DNA of 64,000 bases, from assembly GCF_046119375.1 (NCBI RefSeq), contig NW_027362768.1, forward strand, positions 23,622,001 through 23,686,000, in the 5' to 3' direction. This DNA comes from Phyllobates terribilis (taxonomy: Eukaryota). The first letter of the stretch is position 1. Every line of letters begins with the position of its first letter. Below are positions 13,101 to 60,265 of this stretch, piece by piece. The notes under the pieces are model-generated. The model did no database searches. It was not told the origin of the DNA and saw only the letters and a list, made by a program, of their open reading frames with translations. The translations under genes were made by a program, and so were the position numbers.

Positions 13101-13139
13101 TTACGCTCTGCAGGAGTATTTCTTTCTGGGAGTACTACT

Positions 13140-18194: not shown

Positions 18195-18212
18195 TGGTGT
18201 AGTCGGCAGGAT
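18195..18212 (+). promoter_or_regulatory. Primer-binding site, tRNA-Ser (AGA-type acceptor)
   Basis: TGGTGTAGTCGGCAGGAT is complementary (one mismatch) to the vertebrate tRNA-Ser 3' end ...AUCCUGCCGACUACGCCA, recalled from memory. Confidence 0.85.
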
Positions 18213-18497
18213 TTCGTGCCCGCGACCACCGGGTACTGCGCGCCTTCACAGACTGTGTCGCATACCGTGGTGAAGATTTCCCGCCATCTGCTGGCGTTTT
18301 CCCGCCATTGTCTGCAATTTTCGGGTCGCCGCGCGAGAAGAAGAGTGGCGGAACCGCTGGAAACTCACGAAGTTCAAAGCCCCTCCCCGCGCGCTGACGC
18401 AACACCTGGTCCTGGAAGGAACCCCAGTGAGCGCTGACGTCAGACGCGTGCGACGCCAGGTCCTACAAGGAGACCATCGCCTGCGGAACTGCGGCCT

Positions 18498-19535
18498 ATG
18501 GAGGAAAAGAGAAGGAAGGTAGGCCACGGTTCACTATGGGGGAGGAAGACGCCGGATATGGAGGGAACTTCCACCGCCAGCGCGGCCGCTGCCGCAGTGA
18601 TGCCATTCACAATGCCCTATATCCCGGGAGCGGCGTGGCTGCCCCAGTACTTAGGAGAGTCGCACACCCTGAGTGACTTCAAAGAGAGACTAAGCAGCCT
18701 GTTTAAGGTATATCCCCTGTCCGAGGAGCAGAAAGTGAGCATCCTTATAGGCCAGTTAATCGGTGCAGCCCAGAGAGAAGTAAAATCCTGGTCAGCCAGA
18801 GAAAAAGGGACTGTAAAAGAGATACTGGCCTGCCTAAAGGACACTTTTGACACCCGCACCACCGCAGATATAAAAATGAAGTTCTATGGGTGCAAACAAC
18901 GGGCACAGGACAGTGTACGGGACTATGCTTTAAACCTGCAGGAGGCGCTGAGGGCCATCAGACAGGTAGACCCTGATAGTGTGCGTGATGCAAACAGACT
19001 GTTAACTGAACAATTTATTGAGGGTTTACTGTCCAGCGCCCACCGAACCCAGCTGCGCATCATGGCTCTGCAAAACCCTGACTTAGACTTTGCTCAGTTT
19101 AAGGACAGGGCCATCCAGGTGCTACGAGAACCAGCATCAAGTGGCGCTACAGCTCACCGCCGCCCGGCTATCACCTACCACCAGGAGGTGGCACCCTTTT
19201 CCCCAGAGCCTGTAGGAGCTGATGCACAGACTCTGGATAATGCCCCGTCAACAGACCTGCACCATCAGGTCCAAGAGCTAACTAAAAGTGTAGCAGCACT
19301 AACCAAAACTGTGCAGTCCTTGCAGGTGTCCCCCAAAGGAAGGATTCAGCTGGCTTCCAGTCCGGAGGACGTCCCGTGGTGCCGACAGAAGAGGATTCCA
19401 CCATCCAGAGGGAGGAACAGCGACCGCTACGACCAGGACGGACAACCCATCTGCCGCCGCTGCAACCAACCAGGACATTATGCAAGGTACTGTCATTTAA
19501 ACGAGCAAAACCTGGGGCAGTGGGCCAACCCCTAG
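18498..19535 (+). CDS. gag: Element B Gag (capsid plus CCHC nucleocapsid), open reading frame
   Basis: 345-aa ORF with FYGCKQRAQDSVRDYALNLQ, LLTEQFIEGL and CRRCNQPGHYARYC. Confidence 0.88.
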   Translation: MEEKRRKVGHGSLWGRKTPDMEGTSTASAAAAAVMPFTMPYIPGAAWLPQYLGESHTLSDFKERLSSLFKVYPLSEEQKVSILIGQLIGAAQREVKSWSAREKGTVKEILACLKDTFDTRTTADIKMKFYGCKQRAQDSVRDYALNLQEALRAIRQVDPDSVRDANRLLTEQFIEGLLSSAHRTQLRIMALQNPDLDFAQFKDRAIQVLREPASSGATAHRRPAITYHQEVAPFSPEPVGADAQTLDNAPSTDLHHQVQELTKSVAALTKTVQSLQVSPKGRIQLASSPEDVPWCRQKRIPPSRGRNSDRYDQDGQPICRRCNQPGHYARYCHLNEQNLGQWANP

Positions 19536-31926: not shown

Positions 31927-34900
31927 TTAGTCCTTATAATGGGCAGGGATCTGAACTCTGGTACTATGGGTTGATCTACGCAGTACATTTATTGCCAATG
32001 ACCTACCTGGGTCTCTAGTGTCTACCGCTGGTGTGGTGGGAGCACTATGGACTACACTACAGTTAGTCTGACGTAACACTGGTAGGCTTGGTAGTCTTCT
32101 ACAACCTCTTTGACTCACCATGGGCATGACAGATTCACTGCTAGCAGGGGGTGGATTCATTTGTTTCTCTTCGGTTGTGGCATCTATTGCTGGGGCCGTC
32201 TGGTCTCTCAGCTGTTCTGGAGTCTCTGCGGCTTCCGGTAAAGCTACTTGGGGAAAGGTCAGGACAAGTACCACGATTGCTTGGTTCACCTGCGTCCAAG
32301 ACCGGGGAAATTCTCCAAGGATGGTTTGAACCATCTCTTCCACCTTTTCTGTGTGCTGGGGGCTGTTTTGTTCTTCCTCTTGGTGTCTCAATTGATCAGT
32401 GCATATCTTCATGTGGTCTCTTGAGTCTGCCGCTGAAGTCACTCCTCCATCTTTACTGATGAGGCATACCTTGGTGTTGTCGAAATTTGAAGGTAAGAAG
32501 ACGGTGTATGGCTCAACCTCCCACTGGTCATCTAATTTGTGAACTCGTCTCTTCCTTTTGAGTACCTGTTCTCCAGGTGATAAGGGAACTGCAAGTGCAT
32601 GCTGATTATAAGTTCTCTCCTGCCTCTGTCTTGCCTGGGACAAACTTCTCTCTACACATTCTTTCACCTTGCGGTATTGTTGCTGCCGCTCTGTATCCCA
32701 ATCTGCACCTGGTGATGTTGTCACAGGTGTTAAAACTCCCATGTCCAAGTCAATGGGTAACTTGCCAGGTCTTGCCCTCATCAGGTAGGCGGGTGTACAG
32801 TTGGTGGAGTTCACTGGGATGTGGTTATATAGGTCTACCAAATCCGGTAACTTCTCCGGCCACAGGCTACACTCTTCAAGGGGTAACGTCTTCAACAGGT
32901 CTATTACCACCTGGTTCATTTTCTCACACAACCCGTTGGTCTGGGGATGATACGGCATCGTCCTTATTTTCTTGCAGCCGTACAAGTTACTGAATTCCTG
33001 AAACACTTCTGCTTCAAAGGCTGGGCCTTGGTCGGTAAGCACTCGTTCAGGGTAACCGTGCGGGTGACAAAAGTGTTGTTGAAACGCTTTGGCTGCCGTC
33101 TTAGCCGTCTGTTCCTTCACTGGCACTACTACCAGGAACAGTGGTCTACTATGGTGAGAGCGTAGACATAGCCTGACCATCTTGGGGCTAGCTTCATGTG
33201 GTCCAAGACTGCCAATTCAAGTGGTTGTTTGGTGATTATGGGCTACAGGGGAGCCCTCTGGCTATCACAGTCTTTCCGTCTCAGGTTGCATGGACCACAT
33301 TCTCGACACTATCTCTCGATTGCTTTCCTCATGCCAACGCAGTTAAATCGCTCACGTAGCAGGACTTCCAACTTCTTCCACCCAAAGTGTCCTTCTCCAT
33401 CGTGGTACGCCTCTAAGATCATTGGCGCATCCTGCTTCGGGACTACCACCTGCCAGACCAGTTCGTGTGTCCAGGAGTTGATGCTTCTCTGACACAGCTT
33501 TCCCTCGTAGCTGAACAGCTTGCCTTTCTCCTTCCACAACTATTGGGTCTCCTGTGGAGCATCTGGACCAGGGTGTGAGTCAGCTTGTGTCAGCAACTCC
33601 TTTACTAGGTGGACAGCCGGGTCGCTATCCTGCGTCTCTGCCCATCCATGGTGGTGCAATGGGTTAAACGTGGCCTCTCTGTTGGCGGAGCGCTTGTTCC
33701 TCACACAGTGGGAGCCCTGGGTCACCCCGTGACAATGGAAAGCCGGTAGCTCCATCTCCTCCAGCTCTTCCAGGGTCTTCTCCCCCATCTGGCAAGTTGG
33801 GCATCCTGGACAGCACATTAGCATTAGCATTTTTATGCCCCGCCCGATACTTGATGGTAAACTCGTAGTTGGACAGCTGGGCCATCCATCTCTGCTCCAG
33901 CGCACCTAGCTTCGCCGTTTCAAGGTGGGTCAGCGGATTATTGTCTGTGAAAATTGTAAACCTTGCTGAAGCCAGGTAGTGTTTGATGTGCTCTGTTACA
34001 GCCCAGACTATGGCTAAAAACTCCAACTTGAAGTAACTATAGTTGTCGGGGTTCCTTTCCGTGGGACGGAGTTTCCTGCTGGCGTAGGCAATCACTCTCT
34101 CTCTACCCTGCTGTACCTGGGATAGCACCACTCCCAATCCCACGTTGCTGGCATCCGTATAGGGTATAAAGGGTTGGCCATAGTCGGGCTAGGCCAGGAC
34201 TTTCTCTCCCGTAAGAGCCACCTTCAGTCGAGTGAAGGATTCTTCTTCTTTTTTACTCCACTTGAACGGAGGATTCGAGTTCTTGGCCTTCTTGGACTGG
34301 CCCACTAAGAGGTCCTGCATGGGTGCCGCTATCTTGGTGAGACCCTTGGATGAATCCCCTGTAGTAGCCTACCAGCCCGAGGAACTGCCGCACTTCTTTG
34401 ATAGTGGAGGGTCTTGGCCAGTCCTTGATCAAGGTGACTTTTTCAGGGTCTGGTGCTACACCTTCGGTGCTTACCGCATGGCCTAGGTACTGCACCTTGG
34501 GTTTCAACAGGTGCCACTTGGACGGCTTTACTTTCAGGCCAAAACCGGATAAGGCCTCAAACACCTCAGCCATGTGCTCCAGGTGGTCTTCATATGTCTT
34601 TGAGTAGATGATTACGTCGTCCAGGTACAGCAGAACGGTTTCAAAGTTTTTGTGTCCTACGCAACACTCCATTAACCGCTGGAATGTTCCCGGGGCATTG
34701 CAGAGCCCGAATGGCATGCAGTTGAACTCGCAGAGGCCCATTGGTGTCGTAAACGTGGTCTTCTCTCTGTCCGCCTCTGCCACGGGAACCTGCCAGTACC
34801 CACTGGTGAGATCTAAAGTGGAGAAATAGTTAGCGGATCTCAGTGCAGCTAATGATTCCACAATTCTGGGTAATGGGTAGGCGTCCTTATGTGTAATGCG

Positions 34901-36139
34901 GTTAATCTGCCTATAATCAACACACATCCTCATTGTACCATCTCTCTTTCTAACGAGGACTAATGGAGCTGCCCAAGGGCTACAACTATCTCTGATCACC
35001 CAAGCCTCCTTCATCTCCCGTAACATTCCCTTGGCACATTGATAGTGAGCTGGAGGTACAGACTGGTACCTCTCTTTAATGGGCGGATGGTCTCCTGTGG
35101 GGATATGATGTTGGACCCCTTTTACCTGCCCAAAGTCTAGTGGGTGTTTGCTAAAGACTCGCTCATATTCTTGGACCACCCGGTACACCCCATGCAAAGG
35201 GGTGGAGTCAGTGCCTACTTGTAGCTTCTGACACCAATCCTCCATCTGACCCTTGGAGCCATTGTCCTCCGTCTGTTCGGACGGAGGCAAGGGTTCCACT
35301 GCCTTTATTGCATTGTTACTGACAGTCAGTGAACAGCTTAGCAAGGGTGGCATATCGCGGTAAATGGACCTCTTTCTCCCCACAATTCAGGATGAGTATC
35401 GGTAATCTCTCCTTGCGGACATTGACTACCCCTCTGGCCGTCAAGATGGTTGGCCTACTATCAGAGTACACGGGTTCTACCAGGGCCTGATAATCTTGAC
35501 CCCTGAGACCTATTGCTGCTCGACACCATATTAACATTTCACTCCTAGGGGGCATTGCAATGGGGAATGGATCACTCACTCTGACACTGCCGACTTCTCC
35601 ACCAGACAGCTCTACCTGTTGTCTCTGCATTAGGGCTTTGATCTCCTTCTGCAGAACTCGCTGCTGACTAGAACTGGCAGTGTCTGCGACCTGTTGCAAC
35701 AAAACAATAATTTCCCCAAGACAATTCTCTATCACATTGGTGTCTAAGGTTATCATAGGATGGCTTTCTCGGCGATCAATATCTACAATAATCAACCCTT
35801 GTGATGGCAATTCTACTCGGCCAACCTTTATGGTCACCTCTTTATACCCCTTTATACACCTCTTTATACATGAGGCCAGGGCTGACCATTGCTGGCATAG
35901 ATGTTAAAGTGTTCACCTGGACTGCGGGTAATGTCTGAATCAGCCCAGTATCGTTTAAAAAGGATATATGGCATCGTTGTCACCTGGGAACCAGTGTCCA
36001 GTAACGCGTTCATCGGGATGCCATCAAGCACGACAGGTAGGACCAGTCGTCCTCGCATATACTTGTCTCGCAAACTTTGTGGGCCTGGTCATCTTACTCC
36101 TGGGGGTTGACCCTCTGCCCCAGGGGTTGTTTGTTTAAA
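31927..36139 (-). pseudogene. pol: Element E pol, with multiple frameshifts
   Basis: [33 protein letters not shown] and GLCEKMN. Confidence 0.92.
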
Positions 36140-37079
36140 TCGCAGAATATTGCGAGGTGCCCCGCCTTTTGACAGCGGCGGCAGATGGGTTGTCCGTTCT
36201 GGTCGTAGCGATCGCTGTCTCTCCCTCTGGTCAGTGGAATTCTTCTCTGCTGTCGCCCCGGGACGTCATCTGGACTGGAAGCCAGCTGGATTCTTTCCTT
36301 TGGAGACACTTGCATGGCCTGCATGGTTTTGGTTAGTGTAGCCACACTTTTGGTCAGCTCCTGGACCTGAAGGCGTAGGTCTGCAGAGGGGTCATTATCT
36401 AGGGTCTGCGCGTGAGCCTCCACAGGTGCCGGGGAGAAGGACGCCACCCCCTGGTGGTATGTGATAGCTGGGCACCGGAGGAATGCAGTGCCACTTAGGG
36501 TTGATTCTCGCAGCACCCGGATGGCCCGGTCTTTAAATTGCGCAAAGTCCAGATCAGGGTTTGGCAGAGCCATAATGCGCAGCTGTGTCCGGTGAGCGTT
36601 AGACAGGAGCCCCTCGATAAACTGTTCGGTTAGCAATTTGTCCTCGTCTCGCACACTGTCGGTGTCTACCTGTTTAATGGCCCGCAGTACCTCCTGCAGG
36701 TTTTGAGCATAGTCTCGTACACTGCCTTTTGTTTGCAGCCATAAAACTTCATTTTAATCTCCGCTGCCGTGCGTGTGTCAAAGGTATCCTTTAACCTGGC
36801 CAGTATTTGCTTAACAGTGCTTTTGTCCCTGCCCGGCAAGGACTTCACCTCCCTCTGGGCTACACCGATTAGCTGGCCTATAAGGATGCTGACTTTTTGC
36901 TCCTCAGACAGGGGGTACACTTGGAACAAACTTCGCAGTCTCTCCTCAAATTCGCTCAGGGTGTGCGACTCCTCTGAGTACTGGGGCAACCACGCCGCCC
37001 CTGGAATATACGGCATGGATAAAGGCATTACAGTGGCGGCGGTCGCGCCCGCAGCTGGATCCTCTCCCAGGTTGGGCAT
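36094..37079 (-). pseudogene. gag: Element E gag, frameshifted
   Basis: MPYIPGAAWLPQYSEESHTL..., LLTEQFIEGLL and CRRCQKAGH, homologous to element B Gag. Confidence 0.88.
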
Positions 37080-38691
37080 CTTCCTCCCCCCCAGTGAACC
37101 TCAGACATGTCCTGACTCCTGGGTTTCGGCTGGCGCACCAATCTGCTGCTCTGCAGGCGAGAGGGATCGCTTACCCCGCGGTTCCCGATCGGGCCTCCTG
37201 CTTTCCCTCCGCTGACGTCAAATCACGTTATTATATAGCTCAGCAAAGTCTATGGCACACAACACCCAGTTATACCGGGCTAAAATACTGTTCGTGACGC
37301 CAAGTATGGCGCTCCTCCTGGGCCGTGGGGTACTTGGTCCTGTATTGGAGTAGTCTTGGTGATACTGACCCGGTCTGTGGCCCAGGGCGGTCAAATAAAG
37401 AACAGTCAATTGGAGAAATAAAGATTTGGGGATAATGTTGTGACGCCACCCGTGATATGCGGCTATATGGGGCCGCCGCTGTAGTGCAGATCCACTGGGG
37501 CTGATGGTGACGCAGCATAGATGGTTCAGCTCTCCACAGGCAGAGATAAGCTCCAGGACAGTATATGGTGATTTGAAAAGGTAGATGTTGTCGGCAGGGA
37601 CAGTGTAGTGCAGGGCTGAGGGCGCAGGTAATGACCAGACAACACAAGAATGGCGGTTTCCTCTACCTTTACTTGAGGCTTGACGGTGCAGACCAGGGCA
37701 CTGGTAATAGCTGGTGATGGAGATCCAGGCGGCCTAGAAGCAATTTGGGGATCCACCTCGCCAGGTGGAGTTGTAGGCCTTCCCTCTGCGCTATCCTCTT
37801 TGGCCCTGCTGCTTAAAGATATGCTGCGGCCCTCGTTCCTGAACAATCGTTTATTCCTCGCCGTATGGCAGGCAGCTCGAGCCCTTTTCAGGTGTTGCTC
37901 CTTCGTGGCGGCGCTGGGCCCTAGTATGCTACTGAGCCGCCCGATGTTTGGTGGGGTCAGGAGACCTGCAGTCTCCTGCCCTCCGGATTTAGCTGTCGGG
38001 ACTTTAGTACCCGAACAACCACGGACTCGGGTGTCCTGTTTCTTCTGCTTTTCTCTGGGGCGAGCTTGGTCACAGCTCCTTTCCCCAGGTTCTCCTCATC
38101 GCTCTCCTGTCTATAACTCCCTTTTCTCACTCCAACTGACTTGTCTAAACCCCGCGTCCAGGCTCCAGTTTAAAGAGGAAGCTCCCCTGAAACCGGGTTA
38201 GAGCTCCCCCTTCTGGTCTGGGGCCAGGAAATGTGTTGGATGCTGGTGTTACCTGATAAGGGGACCCCTCCTTGCTTCTAGGCATGGCATCACCCCCTGT
38301 GAGGCAGGCAATGCCAATGTGGCATCTGGACTCTTGGGGTGCCACAATTGCACCACCTGTTCCTCTCGTAACACGCCCTTCATTTAAGTGCTCACTGGCT
38401 AGTCTGCTGTCCTAAGGTGACACTCCTCCACGATGACGCATGAGCCCATCCTACTTACACCATGCCCTTATTGGTCCATCTTTTCTATTTAGTAATTGGT
38501 CTCTCTATTTAAACCAGGAAACTCCTATCTTACACTAGTGCTTACGCTCCTTATAGCAGTGGATACAGAGGAACAAGCTGGTATACTTTTGCACTGTTTC
38601 TGACCTTATGTTCCTGGGCAGTTTGGTAATTCATATTTTTTGTCTTGTTTCCTCATTCTGGGCTGTCCAACTGCCGATAGGGCATGGTATA

Positions 38692-42228: not shown

Positions 42229-44043
42229 TAGTGATGGGCGAACCCGAACAGTAAAGTTCAGGGTCCGTACCGAACACCTACTGTTTGGGCACGGACCCCG
42301 AACATGGACTTCCTCAGTAAGTCCGTGTTACTGTTTGAGCTCTGGCTCGGGTTCGGGTGTTTCCCGCTCTGTCACAGCGCAGGAAACACAGGCTCTGATC
42401 GGCGGTAATACCATTACCGCGGTCAGAGCGCTGTGGCATCATGTTGACAGGTGTCAGCATGATGACATAGCTGTGACAGTAACTCGCGGTAAAAAGCTTA
42501 CCGCGGGTCATAGGCGACGGCTGATGGTACTACTACCACCATCAGCCGGCGCCTCCTGTCGTAGGGAACAACAAGCGCAGGCACTGCTGGATGGGAGCAG
42601 TAGTCTCCCATCCGCCAGCGCCTGTGCTCTGCTGAAAGTAAAAAAAAATGTTACCATTAATAAAAAAAAGTTCAAATAAAATTAAAACACATTATACTCA
42701 CCTACACCTTGTCCCCAATGTTTGGCGCTCCTGCAAAAAAGAAAAAAGAAAAAAACTCCATATACTTGACTCGCCCCCTGGGCCGTGGGGCACCCGGAAC
42801 TGGGCTTCAGTGCGATGATGGGGGTAGTAGTGGCAACCCGATCCCGTGGCTCAGGGTGGTCAGACCAAATGCTGTGTTAGTCTATTTGTAGAGTTATGAA
42901 TGTCTGACTACGCCACCCGTGGATTGCGGTCAGGGATGACCACTGCTGCTAGGCAGACCGCTGAGGCTGATGTTGGTGTGCAGCACAGGGGTAGGATAAC
43001 TCCCCACGGGAAGAGTGTAGCCTCAGGGCAGCGTATATGAATGCTGGGGGTGATAGTGCAGGCCGCAGTAATAAAAGTTCAGAGTCCGCTTCAAACAGTC
43101 CAGGGTCTTTATTGTAGGTATTACTACTGACCCAACAGGAGTACCGGGTAGGAATGGGCCTGGGTATCTGAGAGCACTCGGGCGAGCCCCACTGGTCAGG
43201 GTGAGTGTGAAGGCCTACCGTTCTCTCTCTGCCCTTGCTGACTATCCCCCTTTTCGTGGTGTGATAGCCCACGTCCCTGAGCTGGCCGTGTACTTCGCCT
43301 GTATGGCTTTCGACTCGGGCCTTAGGTACCTTTTGCTTTTCCGTGCTGTACCGGTCCCTCTGTGTGGCGGAGCCTCCAGGCTTCTTAGGCCAAGGGACCT
43401 GAAATCCCTCACAGGATGGTTCTCTGCTGCTGGGCTTGCAACCCTGACAGCCTCGGACCCCAATGTCCGGTAGTGATTCTCTCAGCCAGGACCGGCTCTC
43501 GTCGCCTCTGTCCCTGGCTTGCAGTCTCTCCTCTGCCTCACGGACTCCTCAGCTGCTGCTGACCTGTCCCTCTTCTCTGAGAACCCTTCTGGACACTTCA
43601 GAAGTGGGTTCTGGTCTCTCTAACCCTGCCCCAGTTCCAGCTTTTATAGGGGCAGCCTGCTCCCCCTACTGGCCTGGGACAGGAGGTGCTGCATGCTAAT
43701 GGTCCCTGACCAGGGAACCTCCCTCCTGCTCTCAGACACAGCCTTTAATATTTGTGGCATCCAGGCCTGGGGTGACACATACTCACCGTACACCTAGTCC
43801 CCGAAGCCCATGATCACCTGTAATAAAAGTAAAATAATAAAGCAACCTCATCCTCACCTGTCTGCTGCAGTCCAAATAGCAAGGGCCAGGGATATTTGGC
43901 TCCCCCATTCACATGAATGGGTTCCTATTTTCGGGTTCGGGGTTCGGGTACTGTTTTGGTACCCGAACCCCAACTTTTAAAAAACTGTTCGGCATTCGGC
44001 TCAATTAGCCAAACCCGAACAGTTACAGGTTCGCCCATCACTA
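42229..44043. mobile_element. hAT MITE
   Basis: TIR TAGTGATGGGCGAAC and GTTCGCCCATCACTA with an 8-bp TSD GTCCCAGG. Confidence 0.93.
42767..43779 (-). mobile_element. Solo Gypsy LTR nested in the hAT MITE
   Basis: Minus-strand end ...CCACGGCCCAGGGGGCGAGTCA with TSD TACT on both sides. Confidence 0.9.
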
Positions 44044-46299: not shown

Positions 46300-49200
46300 T
46301 AAAATAGGCAAGGCACGTGGCAAGGGACGGGGATGCTAATGGTGCATGCAGAGGCCGAAGATAAGGCTGTGGGCAAGCCGAAATTGTGCCACAACAAACA
46401 CCCACATCTTCTCGCCTGACCTTCCTGTCCCAATTTCTAGGGGACCGCAGCACACCACTATTGAACCCAGAGTAGTGTCAAAAGGTTGTTGGTTGGATAG
46501 CGGATAATGCTTCCAGTCACTTAGCCACCACCACCACCACCCTGTCTTTCACACGGTCAAGTCTCTGTAGCCGTGAGTCTTGACCGCATATTCCTCACCC
46601 TGATCCTCCTTCCTCCCACCATGCAGAGTACCCAGAGACAACTGATCCCACACTTGGACACTCTGAAGAGCTGTTCACTTTTCCATTTATAGATTCGGGC
46701 CTCTCGCCCGGTCCACTTGAAGCGGGGCAAGAGGAGATCGCGTGTAGCGATGCCCAAATATTTGAGCAGCCACGGTCACACGAAGGCGATGGTGGGAAAG
46801 TGTCACAAGAGGTGGACGATGATGAGACACAATTGCCAGAAAGTCAGGAGGAGGACCAGGGTGCGGAAGTGGAAGACGAGGTGGTGGATGATATTGTATC
46901 TGACCCAACCTGGCAGGAGGACATGCAGAGCGAGGACAGCAGCACACAGGGGGAGGGAGGCAGAGCACCCCAACAGGCAGGAAGAAGCAGTGTGGTGGCC
47001 ACAGACAGAAGGCAGGCAACCGTTCCCCGTAACACCAACACGAAGGAAGTTGCCAGTACAACTGTTAGTTCTTCCCCAGTCTGGTTGTCTTTTAAAGACT
47101 CTGCCGATAACCCCAAAAAGGCCATTTGCACCATCTGCCAGCTCAGCATCAGCAGGGGTGGCAAAACGACCAGCCTGACCACCACCAGCATGATCAGGCA
47201 CATGAAAGCAAAGCATCCAACTTTGTGGGCCGAACCCCAGTGTCCAGACACTGTGTCTGCGGGAGGCACCATTGCTTCTTCCGCTATTGTGCATGCAAGC
47301 CAATCCCCTGTCCATGGTGCATGCGAAGATGCCTCCAGCCCTGCACCTGACGTTGCACACTCAAGTAGCAGCATTAGGAAGAACGTCCATGTCCTTGTCC
47401 CAGCGCAGCGTTCAGTTGTCCATACCCCAGTCCTTGGAACGCAAGCGCAAATATGCAGCCAACGCCCCACAGGCCAAACTACTAAATTCTCACATTAGCA
47501 CGTGTCCTAAAACATTAGCCGTGCTCTCAACAACGCAGTTACCGGTAAAGTCCACCTAACCACGGACACATGGACAAGTGCTTGTGGGCAGGGATGGTAC
47601 ATCTCGCTGATGGCACACTGGGTTAGCATAGTGGAAGCCGGGACCCAGTCGGACCTTGGGACGGAACATGTCCTCCCAACGCCAAGGATTGCAGGCCCTA
47701 GGTCAATCAGGGTTGCCCCCATGGTCTACAGCTCCTGCACCTCATCCTCCTCAGCCTCCTCCTATTCTTCAGCCTCCAATGACCACATCAGTCACAAGCT
47801 GGAAGCACTGCAGCACTGCCTCGGCCAAGCGGCAACAGGCTGTGCTGAAGCTAATATGCTTAGCTGAAAAACCGCACAATGCTGAAGAGTTGTGGACAGC
47901 TCTGAAAGAGCAGGCAGATCTGTGGCTCACATCGCTGAACCTACAGCCAAGTATGGTTGTGTGTGACAATGGCCGGAACCTGGTATCAGCTCTGAGGCGA
48001 GGCGAGCTCACACACGTACCATGCCTGGCCCATGAGCTTAACCTCGTGGTTCAGCGGTTTCTCAAATCCTACCCGGAGCTGCTGGATCTGCTTGTTAAAG
48101 TACACCTCCTGTGTGCCTATTTTAGAAAGTCAGCTACAGCTTCCGCCGCCCTTGCAGTGTTTCAGCAGCGTTTGCAGCTTCAAGCTCACTGACTGGTGTG
48201 TGATGTCGCCACGCGTTGGAACTCTACACTGCAGATGTTGGGAAGGATTTGTGAGCAGAAGAGGGCAGTTGTTAAGTACCAGCCACAACAAGGCTGTTGG
48301 TATTCAGTTCAGACTCCACACATAAGACCTCAGGAGTGGACATAGAGGTCAGACATATGTACCATCCTCCAAAACTTTGAGGACTCCACCAAGATGGTGA
48401 GCGGCGATGACGCCATAATTAGCTTCACCATCCCGCTTCTCTGTCTTCTGAAACGCTCTCTGCTCACAATCAAAGAGGATGCATTGCAGGCGGAGCATGA
48501 TGAGATAAAGCAAGGAACCATACAGGGTGATTACACACAGCCAAGCCTCATCTCATCCCAACGTGGATTGGGTGACAATGAGGAAGAGGAGGAGGAGGAG
48601 GAAGGACAGGAGCTAGTTTCATGCACTATAGACGGTACTACCTGCACAGCCGTCATACCGTCTGTTCAGCGTGGATGGCCAGAGGACAGAGAGGAGGAGG
48701 AGACCATGGTCAGTCATCCTCTTGGTGAGGACACGGAAGTCTTGCCTGTTAGTAGTCTGGCACGCATGGCTGAGTTTATGTTACGCTGCCTTTCCCATGA
48801 CCCTCGCATTCTCAAAATTTTGGGTGACAGTCATTACTGCTTGGTGACACTTCTAGACCCACGCTACAAGGAGAACTTTATATCTCTTATTCCTGAGGCG
48901 GACAGGTCTACAAAAATGGGGCAGTACCAGAAGGCCCTTGTTGCGGAACTATTAAAAAAATTCCCATCTGAAAACGCTGGCGGCAGAGGGCACACTTCGT
49001 TGGACAACCAAGGAGTACAGGCGAGAGAGACACAACTTCAATCCAGCAGAGGCAGAGGAACACTGTCAAAGTACTGGGAGAGATTTCTCAGACCCTCCCA
49101 TCGCACAGGCCCTGAGTCACGGGTTACTCTAACATGGAGTGGAAAGTTTGGGAAGATGCTGAGGGAGTACAATGCCGACCGTACCAACGTCCTCCGTGAT

Positions 49201-49458
49201 TCCTCTGTGCCTTATAATTATTGGGTATCCAAGCTGGATACGTGGAATGAACTGGCTCTCTATGCCTTGGAGGTCCTGGCCTGCCCTGCCGCCAGCGTTT
49301 AATCAGAGCGGGTTTTTAGTGCCGCTGGTGGAATTATAACTGATAAGCGCATCCGCCTGTCAACTGAAAATGCTGACAGGCTGACTCTTATTAAAATGAA
49401 CAAGGGCTGGATTGGGCCAGACTTCTCAACACCACCGAATGATAGCAGCGTAACATAA
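46300..49458 (+). pseudogene. hAT transposase (ZBED1/4-like), disrupted
   Basis: BED finger WLSF..AICTICQ..TTSMIRHMKAKH, VHLTTDTWTS, VCDNGRNL, CLAHELNL, DVATRWNS and CPAASV*SERVFSAAG..RLSTENADRL. Confidence 0.92.
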
Positions 49459-49880
49459 ACTCAAATCCAGTGTCTTTTCTTGGGAAGTGTATTCCCATGC
49501 ACCTTTTCACACCCACACATGGGTATACGCTTCCTGATTTTGTCTATTTGCTCTCGTCCTCCTCCTTCTCCTCATCCTCCACCACCATATCACCAGGGTG
49601 ACCGTGGTCTGTGATGAAACACCCACATAATTTTTTTAAAGGGTGTTTATGATGCCCGTGAAAAATTTTTTTTATACAATATGTTCATGTATATCCCCCA
49701 GGGGTAAATGTTTGTCAACCCATACACTTAGTGCATGGACATTACAAGTATATTAGACCCTCTCCTTTCTAATGGGAACATTTTTTATGAGGCCCTCCTC
49801 CACGTCTCTTCCAAGGGGCATTGAAGTGCTTCCAAATTTTTGGCAGCCCTTGCATTCACTGCATAGGCCAACACTATGGG

Positions 49881-50580
49881 AGACTCTCTCCTTTCTAATG
49901 GGAATTTGTCATTACTGTGGCCCTGCTCTGTGTGTCTTTAAATTCTTAGTGGGATTTTTCCTAAAATTGGTCAGCCGTTAGACTCACTGCATACCCTGTA
50001 ACTGTATAGCAGACCCTTTCCTTTCTAATGGGAACCTGTCGTACTTGTTACTGTGGCCTTGCTCTGTGTGTCTTTAAATTCTTAGTGGGGTTTTTCCTAA
50101 AATTGGTCAGCCGTTGGACTCACTGCATACCCTATAACTGTATAGCAGACCCTCTCCTTTCTAATGGGAACATGTCGTACTTGTTACTGTGGCCCTGCTC
50201 TGTGTGTCTTTAAATTCTTAGTGGGGTTTTTCCTAAAATTGGTCAGCCGTTGGACTCACTGCTTACCCTATAACTGTATAACAGACCCTCTCCTTTCTAA
50301 TGGGAACATGTCGTACCTTGTTACTGTGGCCCTGCTCCGTGTGTCTTTAAATTCTTAGTGGGGTTTTTCCTAAAATTGGTCAGCCGTTGGACTCACTGCA
50401 TATCCTATAACTGTATAGCAGACCCTCTCCTTTCTAATGGGAACATGTCATACCTTGTTACTGTGTCCCTGCTCTATGTGTCTTTAAATTCTTAGTGGGG
50501 TTTTTCCCAAATTTTGGCAGCCCTTGCAGTCACAGCATGGGCATTACCACTATAGGAGACCCGCTCCTTTATAATGGGAA
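49881..50580 (+). repeat. 136-137 bp tandem repeat, about 5 copies, in the hAT 3' region
   Basis: Unit starts at 50011, 50147, 50283, 50420 and 50557. Confidence 0.92.
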
Positions 50581-51610
50581 CATTTTTTTTACTGAGACCC
50601 TCCTCTATGTCTCTTCAAAGGGGTATTGGGTTGCGTCCAAATTTTTGGACGCCCTTGCCGTCACTGGATATGCAATAACAGTATAGGAGACCCACTTGTT
50701 AATAATGGGAACCACAAAGCATAGCCGACTGATGGATCTCTAACAATAGCTAGGGCCAACTGCTGGCCTTTTAAGAATTGTAAGGGCCATCTGATGTCCC
50801 TATAAAAATAGGCTTTATGACTTTCAGAGTCCCTCCATCATAAATAAAACAGGATGAGTCTGATGATGTGTCACACACCACATTGCCAGATAAGGTTGTA
50901 AAATGTTAAAATGACATTTCTCGGTGAATGCATTTGTCTTAAAAAAAAACAAACAATAGGATCTTTCTTTAGTATAAAAAACAGCGTCACCAATTTAACA
51001 ACAATGTAATCACATTGTTCAGCTCATGCACCTCCTCCTCCATCTCCGAAATGACCACATCAGTAACAAGCTGACAGCACTGCAGCACTGCCTTGGCCAA
51101 GCAGCAACAGACTGTGCTGAAGATAACATGCTTAATGCTTAATTGAGAAACCGCCCAGCGCTGCAGAGTTGTTGAAAGCTGTAACACAGCAGCCTGATCT
51201 GTGGCTCTCACCGCTGAACATACAGCCAGGCATGGTCGTGTGTGACAATGGGCGGAACCTGGTGACGGAGAAATGACAGCCGGGGTAGATACGGTTTCCG
51301 TCTATGCCAGCCCTTTCACCGAGCTAAAGAATATGGCTGTGGTGAAATACAACTCCCACTGAGAAGTTGTTTCAGATTGAAAAACATTGTGCCCACCAGA
51401 GGATTTGATTCTGAGGGCTAACCTTTCTCACCCACTCAAGAGCCCCATAGAAGCTGCAAAGTTAGCGCTATCATGAACTCTCCTGAGGTAGAAGCCAAGG
51501 CACACCAGAGGATTCTGTGGTGGGACCGTCCAACCCTGCTGAGAAGCAGTCCTGGTTAAGAAAAGTGTGTGGGAAGGTTCCTGGACACTCTATGGCTGCT
51601 TTTTTACAGA

Positions 51611-51737: not shown

Positions 51738-52455
51738 GTTCACCCTCTAATATCTAACAGGCTTTTGAAACTTTCACCTACTGCCATTCTATCTTCAGCT
51801 CCTTTGTGAGAAAATGTATTTGGGCAGCCACACAGTCTACCAAATAAATTCCTGAGAAGGAAATTGGGGATGGCTTCGCTACTGGTACTGGGGGCAGTGC
51901 TAATACCGTGGCGTCGTACCATAGTTTGCTGGAAATATTCCAGGCTGGTAGGAGGCAAGCAAATTCCCACATAAAAGTACCAGCAGTAATGTTCAGGCCA
52001 CATTTCAAGTGCAAGCGGCTTTAGAGGACTTCCTGGGAGAAATGACACACAGGGTACATACGGTTTCCCTCTATGCCAGTCCTTTCATCGAGCTAAATAC
52101 AACTCTCAGCCAAAAAAGTTGTGGACTGGCTCCGTACCGTCCCTGGCCACATTCACCTGTCCACGTGTTTTTGGTTAGGCGGTCCTTCCCGGTAAGTGCA
52201 TTGGGGAGGGCACGGGTAATGTTGTGGGAACCGTGCTTGTGGAAGGCGGAGGCGACACCAGGAAATATAGTGGAGGCTGGAGACCGAGTATGGACACCCG
52301 GCCGCCGCCGGCATGAGGTTGTGAAAAGCTTCCGCTTCCACGAGCCTAAAAGGCCATATTTCAAGTGCAAAGAGCTGCCCAGAAATCTGGCAGTTTAGTG
52401 TTGCGGCCTGTGGGTGGGTGGGTGGCTGGCTGCATACTTGCACTTGCATTCCAAG

Positions 52456-55400
52456 TAACAGAAAACTAAGCAGATGGTGGCCTCTATCATCATGGCCTCA
52501 CCTCGGCACTATGAACTCTCCTGAAGGAGAAGCCAGGGCCCGCCGGAGGAGTCTCCGGTTCTCTGGTGAGCCCGTCCAACCCTCTGCCGGAAAGCAGCCC
52601 TGGCTAAGAAAAGTGTGGGGGAAGGTTCCCGGACACTCTATGGCTGCTTTTTTAATGTGGATCGGCCATGCTTATGCATGTGTTTTCTCAAAACGCATTA
52701 CAGATCAGGCCATTGTCCAACTCTGCATTCAAGAAATGTGTCCATCAAGCTGGGGGGGCCGCCCCAAGGTGTGTCCGACAGCAAGTTGCCATGGAAACCT
52801 GGGAGACAGTGCGGAGTCTCCAGGAGTCCAAACAGACCGCACCCGGAGGGCAAGATGGAGAGTCAGGAGCCAGCTCCCATCCGTGGTCCGCAACAAGAGG
52901 CAAGGCCTCTCAGATTGGAGGATGCCATGGCAGAGCTATCCCTGGAGGATACTGAATTCCTCCAGGCGGAAATCCAGGAGCTGGGCCAGAGAATGGAGAG
53001 GGCCCCGCAGGACGCCATTGCCGGCTGGAAAAAGGAGCTGCTGGAGAAGCTGATGATCCGGCAGCAGCCAGTGCTTCACTCCACCAGCAGCGCCCCAGCC
53101 CCAGAGGAACCTGAACGGAGCCAGGAGGCAGAGGATGGCACAAGCGCAGCCGCGGGAGCAGGTAAGGAGAGACTCCCTGTCCCGGGCGCTGACAGTGCTA
53201 GCCTGCTCGTGGGCTCCCTGGCGGAACCTCCAATCCCGGGCGCCTACTCCACCATCCTACTCCTGGGCCCCCTGGCAGAACCTCCAACCCTGGGCGCCTT
53301 CTCTGCCGATCAGCTCCCCGGTCTCCAGGTGAAATCTCCCGTCCCGGCACCTACTTTACTGACTGGCTCCCAGACCCCCTGGCGGAAACCCCGATCCCGG
53401 GCACTTGCTCCGCCGACATGCTCCTGGGCCCCCTACTGGAGCCACCTGCCCCCGCGCCCGAGTGGGTCTATGGAAACACCACCTACGACTGGTATGCCAG
53501 ATATAAGGACCAGCAAGGACAAGGACACCCCGCTAGCACCTGCACCTGCACCCCCGGTTACCTGCCAAGGAGGAGAGGAGTTCCGGTGGGACAACCAGGA
53601 AGGGGACCTCATGGGGTTCCCGAGGGAGATGCAGGCCCTCCGGAGGGAAGAGCACTGCAGGAGGGAGCTCCAGCTGTTGGAGCGGGAGCGTCACGACCGG
53701 CAGGTGCGATGGGAACAGAAGGAGGCCCGGAACTTGGCGGCTAAAACCCGGGCCCGCCAAGCAAGAGCTGCCACCCCTAGTCCCCGTCTAGAGGAGATCG
53801 TAGTCAAGTTCGATCTGGATGCGGGGTGGGGCTTTGTGAGGGAACCGCACACCAATCGAGACGTATTTGTCAACCGGCGGGATGTAGAACCCCACCTCCA
53901 ACAGGGGCATCCCAGCCGAGACCTTTAACCTGGTGACTTCGTCACATTTACCCGTCACAAGGGCGAGCGCAGCTGGTATGCCCTCCAGTTATATCGAGTA
54001 GCGAAAAGGAGAGACATGGCCCTGCAGCGCGAGGCTGAAGACCCGGCTGGGTCAGCCTGCAGGAACCAGGAGTTCCCCCGGAGGGAGCATCACTGTTAAA
54101 CTGTTTAAACTGTTTATAGTTACCTGGAAGGGTACAACCCTGCCAGTTTACAAAGTTAACTTGTGTGTATTCAAGGTTTTATAGTTACCCGTTTAAAGAA
54201 CTGTCAGGTTATGGATGGTGAATAACCAAAGAACTTTCCATTGTAAATAGTTGCACTTCTTAAAGTGCCCCTTATTGGTTTTATGCAACAACAAATGACC
54301 TCAGAACAAAAACCCATTTGGCGTGGCCGAAGACGTGGTCCAACACCTGGATCGTCTATGCCCTGCAGCCACGCCCAGGGCCTACGTTGAGGGTTTTCAG
54401 GCGGGTCCCTCATGCTCATGTTTGCTAGTTTGCACCTTGATAAAGAAAATGGACACCCGGTTACAGATCGTGCTGTAACCTATTGAAAAATGTTTTATAT
54501 GAAAAATGTTTTATAAGTGTAAAGAAAGATGTTCTTTAAAAAGTCTCATAATGTTTTGATAACATTGTAAGACTTTTTAAAGAACATCTTTCTTTACACT
54601 TCTAAAACATTTTTCATATAAAACATTTTTCAGTAACGTAACCAGTAACGTTCAAGAAAAAGTGCCTCCCATAAAGGGAAGAAAAAGTTGTTTGAAAATT
54701 CTTCTATGTGATGCATCAAAAATTTTGCATGTCTGTAACATACCCTGTGTTTTTACTCTGTTCTAGCCCGCGGACGTGCTGTGTTTTACCAGGGGGGTAT
54801 GTGGCGCCCCTGAGGGTTCGGTCGCCACAGAGGTACTGCATCTCACCCAGAGGTGTGGTAGCTCACTCTCAGGTAAGGAAAGAGTACAGCTCGGGACCCT
54901 AACACCTGCATCCAACACATACCCGCAGTGGGGGTAGGGCGAGATTGCACCTAAGGGAGAGCACAGTCCAGGGTCCCTAGCTGAGGGGAGGTACTATGTA
55001 GTGGGTGTGGGTGGAGAAAGTAGCTTAGGGGAGCACATGAGAGGAAGATATAAATAGAGAAGCCATCTTGTTTGAGTAGTAGGAGTCAGAGAGCAGTCTG
55101 AGGAGGAGAAGTGTGGGAGCAGGAGCTCTGTAGGAGCTCTGCTCAGGAGGAGGGCCTGAGGAGAGGCCCAGGACTGAAGGAGAGGGAGAGAGGAGCAGGA
55201 AGGGTGCCAGGAACAAAGAAGGGACCCCAGGGGTACGGGCAGTGCTGAAGGCCACCCGTGCGCCCGAATCTACCAGGAGGTGGAGGGGTCAGGCCACACA
55301 AAGGGGACCGGTCCCTCAATTAGCGGAGCACTTTATGTCTCAACTAGAAACTGGAGGCTGCAGCATTTCAAGTCCTGTAGTCAACAGTCCATATCAGTCT

Positions 55401-56017
55401 CACCAAGAAGGTAACTATAGAGGACCCAGGGGGTGGAACAGACGTCGCCCGACAAGGCCCGCAGGTACCGGATTGGGACACTTGGTATGAGGTGCAGGGA
55501 AATGGCCAGGGAGAGAACACACAGAAGGGGGTCCCGCTAAGTACTCCGGAGATATCTGAGGGTCGACTGAATCCCTCCCTGAGTAAGCGCAGCACGACGA
55601 GGGAAGTTACACCGGTACCGGTAACTTGGATTGCAACAAGCGTGAGTAAAGACCCTGAGGACTGCACCCCACTGTCTCTGTGATTATTAACTGCGCCATC
55701 ATCCCTGCACTACAACGCCCAGCATCACCTACTACATCTACACTGCCCTGGAGCTAAGCTCTACCTTTGGAGAGCCACACCAGCTTTGCTGCACTAACAT
55801 CAGCTCCAGAGGACCTGCTCCGCAGCGGCGGCTCCACATAGCCGCATACCACAGGTGGCGTCACGAACTGTACATAAAAACTCTATTAAATTCCCCTGTA
55901 AATAATCCCCTTTTGAATGACCGCCCTGGGTCACGGACCGGGTTATCGCCACTGTGACATCTCCCGTAGCAACGAACGGCCTGGCACCGAGTACCCCACG
56001 GCCCAGGGGGCGCATCA
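52456..56017 (+). mobile_element. Non-autonomous LTR element CSD-2 (5' LTR and PBS missing; 3' LTR at 54800-56017)
   Basis: PPT CCAGGGGGGTA followed by TGTGGCG..., LTR end GGGGGCGCATCA, a CSD ORF upstream, and 3' UTR blocks shared with CSD-1 and element B. Confidence 0.85.
52855..54099 (+). pseudogene. About 414-codon homolog of the CSD-1 ORF; one in-frame TAA at 53926
   Basis: IVVKFDLDAGWGFVREPHTNRDVFVNRRDVEPHLQQGHPSRDL*PGDFVTFTRHKGERSWYALQLYRV, plus a shared LGQRMER..DAIAGWKKE N-terminal block. Confidence 0.85.
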
Positions 56018-58786
56018 CTTGCATTCCAAGGAATGGGGTAGGGACAACTGAACGCTGCAGTGGGACAAGGACGTGGACGGTGATTGTTACAAGTCTGCAA
56101 CGACAGGTGCATGGCGGGAGGCATCTTCGCATGTGCCAAGGATCACTTATGATGGGCACACTTTTAGGCAGCGACCTGGAAGTCAGAGATGCTTCTAGAG
56201 GTCTTCCCCATGCTGTTCCCATGTCTTTTCAGCACTGTATGCATGTGTCTGAAGATGTGTCACACACCACATGGCCAGATAAGGTTGTAAAATGTTAAAA
56301 TGACATTTCCTGGTGAATGCATTTGTCTTGGTTGAAAGCAATTCAAAAGTGCAAAAACGCATCAAAAACACTGCGTGTGAACATAGCCCAAGTTGTGGAG
56401 GAGTATTTTTGTTTTTGGTTATTTATTTTGCCTTATGTACAAGTCATTACCCAGGAAAGGATGTTCCTTAATATATTTCCCAGGAAAATCCATTTTGGTT
56501 TCGTTTTTGTATGTTTTATTGTGAGTCCGTAAAAGTGGTGTAATACTCTGACCACGTTGCTGACAGCAGTGATCTGGGAGTCAGAGATACTTCCAGGGTT
56601 CTTCCCCATGCTGTTCCCATGTCATTTGAGCACTGTTCCCATCGATTTGGGCAATTTTTAGGCCCTATGCAGACCACCGGAGGGAGCCGCCTGAAAAATG
56701 CTCGAGTTTCCCATAGACTTACCAATGGGAGGTCACACTTTCAGCGACCTCGATAGTTACACCTCTGCTTTGAAGGTTACTTGATATAGTAACGTCATCA
56801 AGCTGCTTGCACTGAGCCCACTACTTGGGATTCTGAGTCACTCCCTTTGGTGTGGAAATGGGGTTTGGTGATTATTAGGTTATACTATTTTGGGTGCTCT
56901 TTTGGGTAATACAAGGGGGGGACAATGGAATAATTAAAATTGTATGGGGGTACTAAAGGAAGGATTATTATTTTATGAGGGCCTAAAAGGATTAATATAC
57001 ATATAGTACATATACTGTACACATATTACATATATACATATACAGTATGTATATGTTCCTACAAAAAAAGACAGCCAGTCGCCAGGTCAAAGTACAAAGT
57101 TTCATTGTTAGACAAAGATTACTCACATGCTGTATATACATTACTAAAAAATGTAGAGAACACTTAAAAGGGAACTATATTTTCTGGTAACTTTCCTGAA
57201 TAAGCTCACATTTGTGTGTGCATGTGGAATAACACAATTTTTAACCATTAAATGACTGGTATCCTACAATTCTCACCAGTTAATCTATCTATAATTTGCA
57301 ATTGACTCTGTGCTAGTGGGGGGGGGGAGCTACACTGATGCCTCCCATATACTAAACATACAGAGAGAAGTGTTCTTGTTCTTTTTTGCTTGATAAATCA
57401 CAGACAGGAGCATCAGAAGCACTGAAGAAATTAGATAGCAGGATTTAGCAGTGTAGCTGTGAATCCAGCACAGGAATAAGCTATCAAGAATCTGCATGTT
57501 CTGTTTCTCTGCCCCTCACTTTACTTCTACTCACTACCCCTTAGAGCACATTAAGAGGAGGGACCTGACACCTCACTGTGCTGCCATTGTGTTTTTTTAC
57601 AGTGACTATCTCCTTATCTTTCTTAATTGCTTTTCCCCTAGTTTTGCATCTTGCTAGTGTCCTTGTCAATACAGGTAGCATGAGACAGTTCCTGAAACCC
57701 ATTTACGTTGCACAGGAAGCCCAGCTCCCAGAGAATTGCATATCCATACGTGCTGCATAATGACCCTGATATTTCTGAATCAAATTAAACAAATATCACT
57801 GACCTAGGTAGACTAACAATATATTAAAAACTATTTTTTTTATCACTAAATATTAAAAGTATATTCCAATTCCACAGTGCAGTAGAAATTTAGATCCAAC
57901 CAGTCATATAGAAAGCAATGATAGTATTTTTCTCTATAATATTATACCACCAATACTGGTTATTTCCCTAGATAGACTGCTTTTGCTGTATACAAATATA
58001 GCAATATATTGCTGGATATTGGTGGTGAATTTTTCAACCAATGTGAATGGAGAATATCCTAGATAATAACCATTTCTTCTATTCAGCATACTTAGGTCTG
58101 CCTAGCTAACAGTCTGTTTCCTAATATCACAATAATATAAATAGCTTAAAGTTTATATGATACACTGAACTCTACATGGTCAAATAAATTATCCCTTTAT
58201 TTTATATAAGTGGAGTTGCTCAATGTGGATACATTGTTGCACTCAGCCAGCTACAGGGAGCAATTTAATTTATTCTTATTCTCCCAATTAGGCCGGGATC
58301 ATATGAGCGATGATTCTCTCTTCCGAGAGAATCGGATCAATTATGATTATGACACTCTGCTCAAACTTTGATCCAAGTTTGATCAGAGTGTCAGTTTACT
58401 GTGATCCAATTCTCTAGGATGAGAGAATCATATCCAGCTGTGGAGAAGATGGAGAACTTAATTTCTCCATCTTCTTCATTGTCGGTAAATCGGACTGCAT
58501 TCGGATGACATCGGAGAATAGTACAATGTTCTACATGCACGCATAGACTTGAATGGGTGCGTGTGATCTGATTTGCGGAGCCACTCGCAGCATGCTGCAA
58601 TCTTTTCCACAGACTAATTCGGTCTGTAGAAAAAAATGTAGATTTGCACTACCCCATAGTATAATATTGGTCCAAGTGCTATCCGATAAAACATCAGATA
58701 GCACTTGTCCGAGTTGTATGCTTGTGCTGCAAAATAGCTTAATTTCCACATGAATGGTTACTATATGCTATTAATCTATCATTTAG

Positions 58787-59464: not shown

Positions 59465-60265
59465 TGTCGACCATCATGACTCCTTCCTGTAATAATGTTC
59501 CCATCCTGGGCCCTTTCCTGTAATATCCCCATCTTGAGTCCCATCCTAGTATAATGACCTCTATCCCAGGCCCCTTCTAGTAATAATGTCCTCCATCCTG
59601 GTCCCCTTCTAGTAATAATGTCACCATCCTGGGCCCCTTCTAGTAACAATGTCCCCCATGCTGAGCCCCTACCCAGTATAATGTCCTCCATCCTTGGCCC
59701 CTTTCTGGTATACTGTCTCCAATCCTGGGCCTCTTCCAGTAATAATGTCCCTCATCATTGGCCCCTTCCTGGTATAATGTCCCCCATCCTGGGCCTGATC
59801 CTGGTATAATGTTCCCAATCATGGGCCCCTTTCAGTAACAATGTCCCCCATCCTGGGATCCTACCTGGCATAGTTTCCTCCATTCTGGGACACTTTCTGG
59901 TAAAATGTCCCCCATCCTCTTCTCCTTCCAGTAGTAGTGTCCTCCATCCTTGGTCCCTTCATGGTATAATGTCCTCCATCCCGAGTCCCTTCCATTAATA
60001 ATGCCCCCATACTGGGCCCCTTTCTTGTATAATGTCTCCCATCCTTGGCCCTACCCAGTAATAATGTCCCCCATCCATGGCTCCTTCCTGGTTTAATATC
60101 CCCCTTCCGGGCCCCCTTCCTGGTATAATATCCCCCATCCTGGGCCCTTACCTGTTATAATGTCCCCAATCCTGGGCCCCTCCAAATAATAATTTCCCCC
60201 AACATGGGCCCCTTCCTGATATAATGTCCCCATCCTGGTATAATGTCTCCCATCCTGGGCCCCTC
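59465..60265 (+). repeat. 32-bp minisatellite (TAATAATGTCCCCCATCCTGGGCCCCTTCCTG), about 25 copies; inverse copies also at about 10600-10740
   Basis: Unit starts at 59581 and 59613, spaced 32 bp. Confidence 0.88.

Follow-up and report, generated by a model that had tools for sequence, protein, structure and literature searches.

The 64,000 nt stretch of Phyllobates terribilis DNA analysed here (contig NW_027362768.1, positions 23,622,001 to 23,686,000 of the forward strand), referred to as the window, is densely packed with long terminal repeat (LTR) retrotransposons. Our subject is a truncated element in its right-hand part, here named element 2, and the protein that it encodes. The element 2 open reading frame (ORF) runs from an ATG at 52855 to a TAA at 54097–54099 and is broken by a stop codon at 53926–53928, which lies within a cold-shock domain (CSD). 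A related ORF is found in a complete element, here named element 1, which served as the comparison copy. The features of both elements and of their gag-pol neighbours are listed in Table 1. Pfam searches of the two ORFs returned the CSD alone, and the protease, reverse transcriptase (RT), RNase H and integrase domains of autonomous Ty3/gypsy elements were not found. We conclude that elements 1 and 2 represent two diverged families of non-autonomous, presumably helper-dependent Ty3/gypsy-type elements that have kept their CSD protein under purifying selection. The evidence for the type of element and for selection is strong, and we hold both with high confidence.

Table 1. Features of the CSD elements and their neighbours in the 64-kb window (UTR, untranslated region; PBS, primer-binding site; PPT, polypurine tract; TSD, target-site duplication)
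Feature	Position	Strand	Remarks
Element 2 CSD ORF	52855–54099	+	414 codons; one internal stop, two compensating frame slips
Left portion of hAT-like target	52418–52455	+	continues right of the LTR, 56018–56142
5′ leader remnant	52739–52854	+	homologous to element 1 leader 23392–23531
Conserved N-terminal amphipathic helical block	52909–53067	+	17/49 identical, null 10.5±2.2
Pro/Ala linker, five 54-bp units	53176–53444	+	units start at 53176, 53230, 53284, 53338, 53391
F-x-WD...DL-x-GF motif	53575–53616	+	conserved in family members
Long charged helix	53617–53772	+	~50 aa, E/R/K/Q-rich
CSD, OB-fold barrel	53782–54006	+	internal stop codon 53926–53928
3′ UTR and PPT	54100–54799 (PPT 54791–54799)	+	blocks in common with element 1 and gag-pol element UTR
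Fold-back hairpin in 3′ UTR	54481–54635		75-nt arms, 95% complementary, 5-nt loop
3′ LTR of element 2	54800–56017	+	TG...CA; sole LTR remaining; internal PBS-like motif at 55856
Element 1, complete, without gag or pol	21801–26595	+	nested in pol of gag-pol element 17232–29858
Element 1 LTRs	21801–23026 and 25371–26595	+	99.3% identical
Element 1 PBS	23031	+	PPT and 4-bp TSD also present
Element 1 CSD ORF	23532–24863	+	one stop at 24348
Gag-pol Ty3/gypsy element A	17232–29858	+	PNMA-like Gag with CCHC knuckle, protease, RT, integrase; LTRs 96.5% identical; no CSD
Gag-pol Ty3/gypsy element B	30454–38346	−	second full-type Ty3/gypsy neighbour
LTR-internal PBS-like motifs	7736, 15656, 18050, 22875, 26444, 55856	+	~140–160 nt before LTR 3′ end
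LTR-internal PBS-like motifs	30609, 37448, 42915	−	~140–160 nt before LTR 3′ end

The original prediction, made from the letters of the sequence, held that the two copies have the same protein architecture in different LTR families of low DNA similarity, and our comparison bears this out. The N-terminal helix, the F-x-WD...DL-x-GF motif and the GWGF and DVFV-x-RRDVE motifs of the CSD are found in both copies, and BLASTP aligned the two proteins over 203 residues with 43% identity (E 4e-33). Nucleotide identity is 57% across the aligned C-terminal codons, and the LTRs align at their ends only (approximately 80% over the first 79–87 nt and 66–72% in the 3′ part). In the codon alignment, the internal stop of each copy faces a sense codon of the other that differs by one base, as had been noticed.

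The damage to element 2 is more extensive than predicted. One internal stop codon is present in frame, as described, but there are also two compensating frame slips in the linker. Linker unit 4 is 53 nt long, one base short, which causes a slip. The next approximately 45 codons match P0003, a P. terribilis relative of the protein, solely in another frame (score 125, null 27; 30 against a null of 29 in the ORF frame), and the frame is restored by approximately 53527. The start of P0003 falls at the site matching the element 2 ATG. In the CSD, element 2 deviates at 2 of 18 otherwise invariant columns, and the other seven family members compared deviate at 0–4. Recent post-insertion damage, which had been proposed for both copies, does suit element 1, with its near-identical LTRs. 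It does not suit element 2, which has at least three lesions and has lost its 5′ end, and its damage is undatable because the window holds no 5′ LTR to pair with the 3′ LTR. Element 2 is an old wreck, and its value is as a second, diverged family that establishes selection.

Selection was assessed on a codon alignment of the two copies by the NG86 method, with a null in which the same substitutions were placed at random (5000 shuffles). In the CSD, 38/72 residues are identical where 25.1±2.8 were expected, a value reached by 0/5000 shuffles. The pN and pS of the domain are 0.289 and 0.665 (dN/dS approximately 0.22), and identity at codon positions 1, 2 and 3 is 66%, 80% and 39%, respectively. 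The C-terminal region has 79/174 identical residues (null 51.5±4.3), with a dN/dS of 0.32 over the C-terminal 172 codons. The N-terminal helix (Table 1; p 0.002) and the long helix (27/67 identical, null 19.5±2.7; p 0.005) also exceed their nulls. Across the family, 16–20 of the first 58 CSD columns are invariant in any seven of eight members. The linker and tail are not conserved, which would fit a neutral leftover or chance similarity. That explanation can safely be set aside, as no shuffle matched the CSD, second positions are twice as conserved as third positions and the invariant columns recur across members. Neutral divergence, named in the original prediction as the outcome that would count against it, does not account for the similarity. 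The CSD protein is a conserved trait of this LTR-element family, long under purifying selection, and relatives with the same layout exist elsewhere.

Outside the CSD, a possible Gag origin had been suggested for the N-terminal block, and we obtained no support for it: hhalign against the Gag of the window gave a probability of 0.2%, and the atlas gave no usable feature match. A tblastn search against both gag-pol elements returned a best E of 0.018, which is not credible, and the atlas structure entries for the block were unrelated short helices. The ORF has no Pfam Gag match, and the AlphaFold2 model of P0006, another P. terribilis relative, has no helical capsid domain (low confidence). The predicted repeats of approximately 54 bp are present in the linker (53204–53434, 4.3 copies, 66% matches), but their expansion is specific to the element 2 copy, as P0003 has one unit. 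The whole-protein model of P0006 rests on four sequences (pLDDT 48) and is usable for its long helix alone, residues 271–318, where successive ten-residue blocks have pLDDT values of 76, 93, 95, 91 and 68 (monomer model). This helix had been described as a coiled coil. Its a/d positions are poor in hydrophobic residues, at best 8/14 in element 2 and 5/16 in P0006 with Ala counted, and it looks more like a charged single alpha-helix.

When the whole protein was used as a query, a single match was found among 8000 scored candidates, P0003, which is fused to a Harbinger-type transposase. The C-terminal part found two of 799, including P0006, which is unbroken and 77% identical. P. terribilis relatives exist for both window copies. 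A profile search of 1.84 billion representatives returned 167 matches at E ≤ 0.001, the best 150 of which were listed. The top four after P0006 (P0007–P0010) each have a single CSD and carry the same loop signature; in P0007 and P0008 the whole layout is present. A 15-sequence CSD profile gave at least 43 matches among 7996 scored candidates. The seven named matches are from P. terribilis, Ranitomeya variabilis, R. imitator and Anomaloglossus baeobatrachus, with no other amphibian among the matches listed; five of the seven were inside the profile, and this poison-frog range should be read as a minimum.

In a tree of 70 CSD proteins, drawn from 190 stored CSD-match proteins (kept if labelled, or if they had no more than two domains and covered 45 columns or more), 18 family sequences group together with support of 81/83; a subset of 10 that contains both window copies has support of 95/82. 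A hand-picked tree of 36 sequences, from which one long branch and two near-copies were excluded, placed 16 family sequences on one branch (94/95). P0064, a member of the profile, fell outside the family group. In the gene models P0003, P0129, P0157 and P0158, exons of family CSDs are fused to sequence unrelated to them (Harbinger-type transposase, astacin/CUB and other long tails); these models are probably chimeric annotations over element copies.

The CSDs of element 1 and P0006 score 32.9 and 36.9 bits against PF00313, which has a curated cut-off of 27 bits, and the P0006 domain was modelled by AlphaFold2 as a five-stranded barrel with pLDDT 95. CspA, CspC and YB-1 are tied as its structural matches (Z 12–13, root-mean-square deviation 1.3–2.4 Å), and sequence identity to the solved YB-1/YBX2 domains is 31–33%. 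A fold search of BFVD gave four matches at E ≤ 0.001, which are phage or giant-virus cold-shock proteins, with no retroelement among the best 50 rows. We compared the family with the nucleic-acid contact residues of YB-1 as given in PMC7498358. The equivalents of F74 and F85 are each kept in 16/18 family CSDs, an aromatic residue is present at the Y72 position in 17/18, and an Arg stands immediately after RNP2 in 16/18. Neither window copy retains W65 or H87, and both lack the near-invariant Y-box CSD sequence. Judged from these residues, the binding surface is kept but remodelled.

The 15-sequence profile matched Y-box proteins best (67 bits, against 51 for CspA, 29 for Lin28 and 24 for CSDE1) and aligned to YB-1/YBX2 over 67 columns without a gap; a 3-sequence profile scored CspA at 27.5 and Y-box at 23.1 bits. 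Approximately unbiased (AU) tests rejected neither a grouping with two unnamed Y-box-like sequences (p 0.31) nor one with CSDE1 (p 0.31). A Y-box protein is a plausible donor of the CSD, though the two trees and the AU tests do not fix the donor. Membership of the Lin28 group was rejected, as no zinc-knuckle match was found in P0001, P0002 or P0006–P0010. Because some relatives are annotated as frog gene models with LOC names, the ORF might be a captured host retrogene, present either as a passenger or as a sequence domesticated by the host, a status that may also apply to some CSDs of bird endogenous retroviruses (ERVs). However, the domain is distant from the solved Y-box CSDs, both window copies are broken, several of the database models are chimeric, and at least two families have LTRs of their own, one of them recently mobile. 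We consider a host retrogene very unlikely.

Element 1 has the features of a non-autonomous Ty3/gypsy-type element, namely paired TG...CA LTRs, a PBS, a PPT and a TSD. Its 2.3 kb interior is too small for pol and holds a single CSD ORF and neither gag nor pol. The PBS leader is followed directly by the ORF, then by the UTR and the PPT. With paired young LTRs and a 4-bp TSD like those of its gag-pol neighbours, element 1 is young and moved as one unit.

The CSD elements and the gag-pol elements have cis-acting signals in common, the PPT among them. The element 1 PBS and adjoining leader are 91% identical to those of the gag-pol element at 17232–29858 over the first 54 nt. Two blocks of the element 2 3′ UTR, of 116 and 83 nt, are 83% and 78% identical, respectively, to the UTR of the same gag-pol element, a resemblance that begins right after the pol stop, and further blocks are 86–90% identical to element 1. 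The nearest match to the element 2 LTR is the LTR of the gag-pol element at 30454–38346 (72% over 342 nt), and the motif at 55856 inside the element 2 LTR matches the PBS of that element. The element at 30454–38346 (−) is a candidate helper type for element 2, and that at 17232–29858 (+) is likewise of a candidate helper type. The LTR ends of CSD and gag-pol elements are 69–72% identical, and the TSDs are of equal length, 4 bp. Both PBS types are presumably those for tRNA-Ser. When all six frames of the window were searched with the CSD profile, the sole matches were the CSDs of elements 1 and 2, with none in the gag-pol elements.

These findings bear on whether the CSD ORF belongs, as an accessory gene, to some autonomous Ty3/gypsy lineage absent from the window, in which case both copies would be deletion derivatives and selection would have acted in the gag-pol parent. 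Accessory RNA-handling proteins are known in autonomous Ty3/gypsy elements, CERV of Cer1 being reported as one (PMC10309623). However, two separately diverged families both lack gag-pol in their surviving parts, the ORF directly follows the PBS leader in element 1, the element 2 UTR resembles the helper UTR from just past the pol stop, and no gag-pol element in the window carries a CSD. We regard an accessory gene as rather unlikely.

Two further sequence features involve the PBS. An LTR-internal copy of the PBS start lies approximately 140–160 nt before the LTR 3′ end (Table 1), and in the three elements where a true PBS is also present, the types of the two co-vary. It is possible that it acts as a second priming site, a primer-activation signal or a tRNA-fragment target. 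The heptamer CCCGCCA, which is complementary to the PBS start, occurs 11 times on the + strand of the window, six times in the element 1 leader (23117–23237) and twice in the helper leader (18280–18301), and is a candidate packaging or primer-related signal.

At its left end, the homology of element 2 to element 1 starts near 52739. The remnant from there to the ATG is probably non-coding leader, as the three codon positions do not differ in identity (12/12/12 of 18); an N-terminal extension of the protein upstream of 52855 was rejected on the same count, although homology is present. No 5′ LTR or PBS of element 2 was found anywhere in the 64-kb window, and approximately 280 bp of other sequence occupies the expected place of the 5′ LTR. 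A 13-nt duplication flanks the block holding element 2 (52443–52455 and 56018–56030) and is longer than the duplications at the other elements, which measure 4 bp. The sequence targeted by element 2 is related to that at 46584–49302, a decayed transposase with a BED zinc finger (Pfam), which we take to be hAT-like, in part from that match. The fold-back hairpin in the element 2 3′ UTR (Table 1) is assembled from sequence related to the element 1 UTR. A 6-bp hairpin is present in the 3′ UTRs of both CSD elements (54253–54268 and 25058–25073), with one compensatory pair change. Its folding energy is no better than that of shuffled sequences, and four stretches examined for conserved 3′ UTR structure were no better folded than shuffles (z −0.25 to −1.43).

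Our preferred interpretation, to which we assign a probability of about 0.55, is that the locus is a decayed, 5′-truncated non-autonomous frog Ty3/gypsy LTR element in which one CSD protein replaces gag-pol and would bind its own RNA in cis, helping that RNA to survive, to be exported or to be packaged in germ cells. The element RNA would be packaged, reverse-transcribed and integrated by the Gag and Pol of related full elements, as the young LTR pair and TSD of element 1 suggest. The CSD may bind single-stranded RNA via the retained phenylalanines of RNP1 and RNP2 and the new arginines, and the bound RNA may be mostly the element's own transcript; these are the least certain steps. The protein could then shield the transcript or steer it into germ-line helper particles, and its N-terminal helix, spaced off by the long helix and linker, may serve as a protein-contact module. 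We favour action in cis because, in a helper-dependent element present in many copies, selection maintains an ORF most easily if the copy that encodes it gains the benefit. Host YB-1 is reported to aid HIV RNA metabolism (PMC6040738), FRGY2 to mask mRNA in Xenopus oocytes (PMC1477856) and poison-frog oocytes to express Ty3 elements (PMC11152451, citing Rogers et al.).

Two other roles are conceivable. The protein might act in trans, as a counter-defence factor or a Y-box decoy against FRGY2/YBX-type masking or small-RNA silencing, and so aid the whole Ty3 community. The gap-free alignment of the broad profile to YB-1/YBX2 would fit a decoy, the replacement of W65 and H87 might suit one, and the convergent capture of CSDs by bird ERVs is described as adaptive by its authors (PMC12287698). 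A shared benefit would be open to free-riders, however, and long selection across many diverged subfamilies would be harder to explain, so we think a trans role unlikely. Alternatively, the CSD could be a nucleocapsid-like chaperone of single-stranded DNA or RNA in reverse transcription, assisting primer annealing and strand transfer inside helper particles. CSDs are reported to bind single-stranded DNA as well as RNA (PMC7498358), and the CSD element has no zinc knuckle of its own. However, the helper Gag already has a CCHC knuckle, and we detected no Gag-derived assembly sequence that would put the protein in particles. This role appears improbable.

Several points weigh against binding of the element's own RNA in cis, or against the evidence on which it is built. 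The number of complete CSD elements observed is one, element 1. The element 2 CSD scores 21.7 bits, below the PF00313 cut-off. Of the YB-1 stacking residues, W65 is kept in 1/18 family CSDs and H87 in 0/18, so affinity or specificity has probably changed, and DNA is a possible ligand. Taken by itself, the long helix has a pN/pS interval of 0.49–1.04, which touches 1. The dN/dS values are to be read with dS near saturation, and the protein-level codon alignment inflates identity in gapped parts, the CSD being ungapped. A stop-count test is weak, with approximately 6–8 stops expected across the pair and 2 observed, and was not relied on.

More tentatively, the frog elements could be a satellite-like class of poison-frog LTR elements that dropped gag-pol and kept a host Y-box domain, rewired by loss of W65 and H87 and gain of arginines, as a cis adaptor that recognises its own RNA, frees it from oocyte masking and delivers it to helper capsids. 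The cassette would have diversified over several LTR families with different helpers and primer types, and may add to large frog genomes.

Elsewhere in the window, solo LTRs of the same superfamily with 4-bp duplications are located at 7056–7878 (+), at 42767–43779 (−) and from approximately 14516 (+). The last of these interrupts another Ty3-type pol ORF (13065–14594). Tandem arrays are present at 184–1564, 5423–5639, 8222–8799, 49711–50721 and 59495–60242; the array types in the window are purine-rich repeats of 15 and 9 bp that have long open frames, and satellites of 31, 17, 137 and 32 bp. An Rfam scan of the window gave 0 matches.

Non-autonomous LTR elements of the TRIM, LARD and gag-only TR-GAG types keep LTRs, a PBS and a PPT and rely on helper enzymes. 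Such elements are generally non-coding or gag-only and are usually regarded as having no useful protein besides Gag. Unlike these types, the frog element keeps a selected, non-Gag protein. The Xenopus LTR elements 1a11, Xretpos and lambda-olt 2-1 are likewise from a frog and without pol homology, and an ORF was reported for 1a11 and Xretpos (PMC4585706). By that description 1a11 is Gag-like, and the authors thought these elements immobile (PMC4585706), whereas the CSD ORF has no Gag similarity and one copy was recently inserted.

CSDs inside LTR retroelements have been described in birds, in 46 ERVs that arose by several captures (PMC12287698). Those elements are Retroviridae by their RT, with CSDs in varied positions (PMC12287698); the frog element has no RT, and its cis signals match neighbours with a PNMA-like Gag and a Ty3-type pol. 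Pfam matches of the bird CSDs have E values of 9e-26 to 3e-14 (32/41 supplementary rows, different search program; PMC12287698), compared with 2e-4 to 3e-9 for the frog CSDs. Unlike the bird ERVs, the frog element carries a diverged CSD as part of a protein with a fixed, multi-part layout, which stands in for gag-pol inside a Ty3/gypsy shell and is under purifying selection. The best functional analogy is CERV of the Caenorhabditis elegans element Cer1, a Rev-like, element-encoded protein that handles genomic RNA in germ cells (PMC10309623). CERV derives from a spliced transcript, its parent element encodes Gag and Pol as well, and no CSD is named in the abstract (PMC10309623); the two are likened by function only. 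The Y-box proteins YB-1/YBX1 and YBX2/FRGY2 have a CSD with a longer loop, as in the frog element, but the frog CSD is C-terminal, with W65 and H87 replaced, and is not followed by the long C-terminal domain of Y-box proteins.

We found no description of a CSD-encoding Ty3/gypsy element in the titles and abstract openings of the literature searched, which left aside subscription papers, Repbase/Dfam and bioRxiv supplements that may hold the family. The term "cold shock" was not found by in-text search in PMC6278860, PMC11152451, PMC8672886, PMC4131045 or PMC4585706. CSD capture was already known from bird retroviruses, and what appears to be new here is the selected form that replaces gag-pol.

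In practical terms, CSD ORFs of this family contaminate poison-frog annotations as chimeric "uncharacterized proteins". That two diverged families keep a non-Gag nucleic-acid-binding protein implies an unstudied RNA-level step at which helper-dependent elements compete, and the small, well-folded CSD makes the question testable. Together with the repeated captures in bird ERVs, the frog elements suggest that CSDs are a recurring tool of LTR retroelements.

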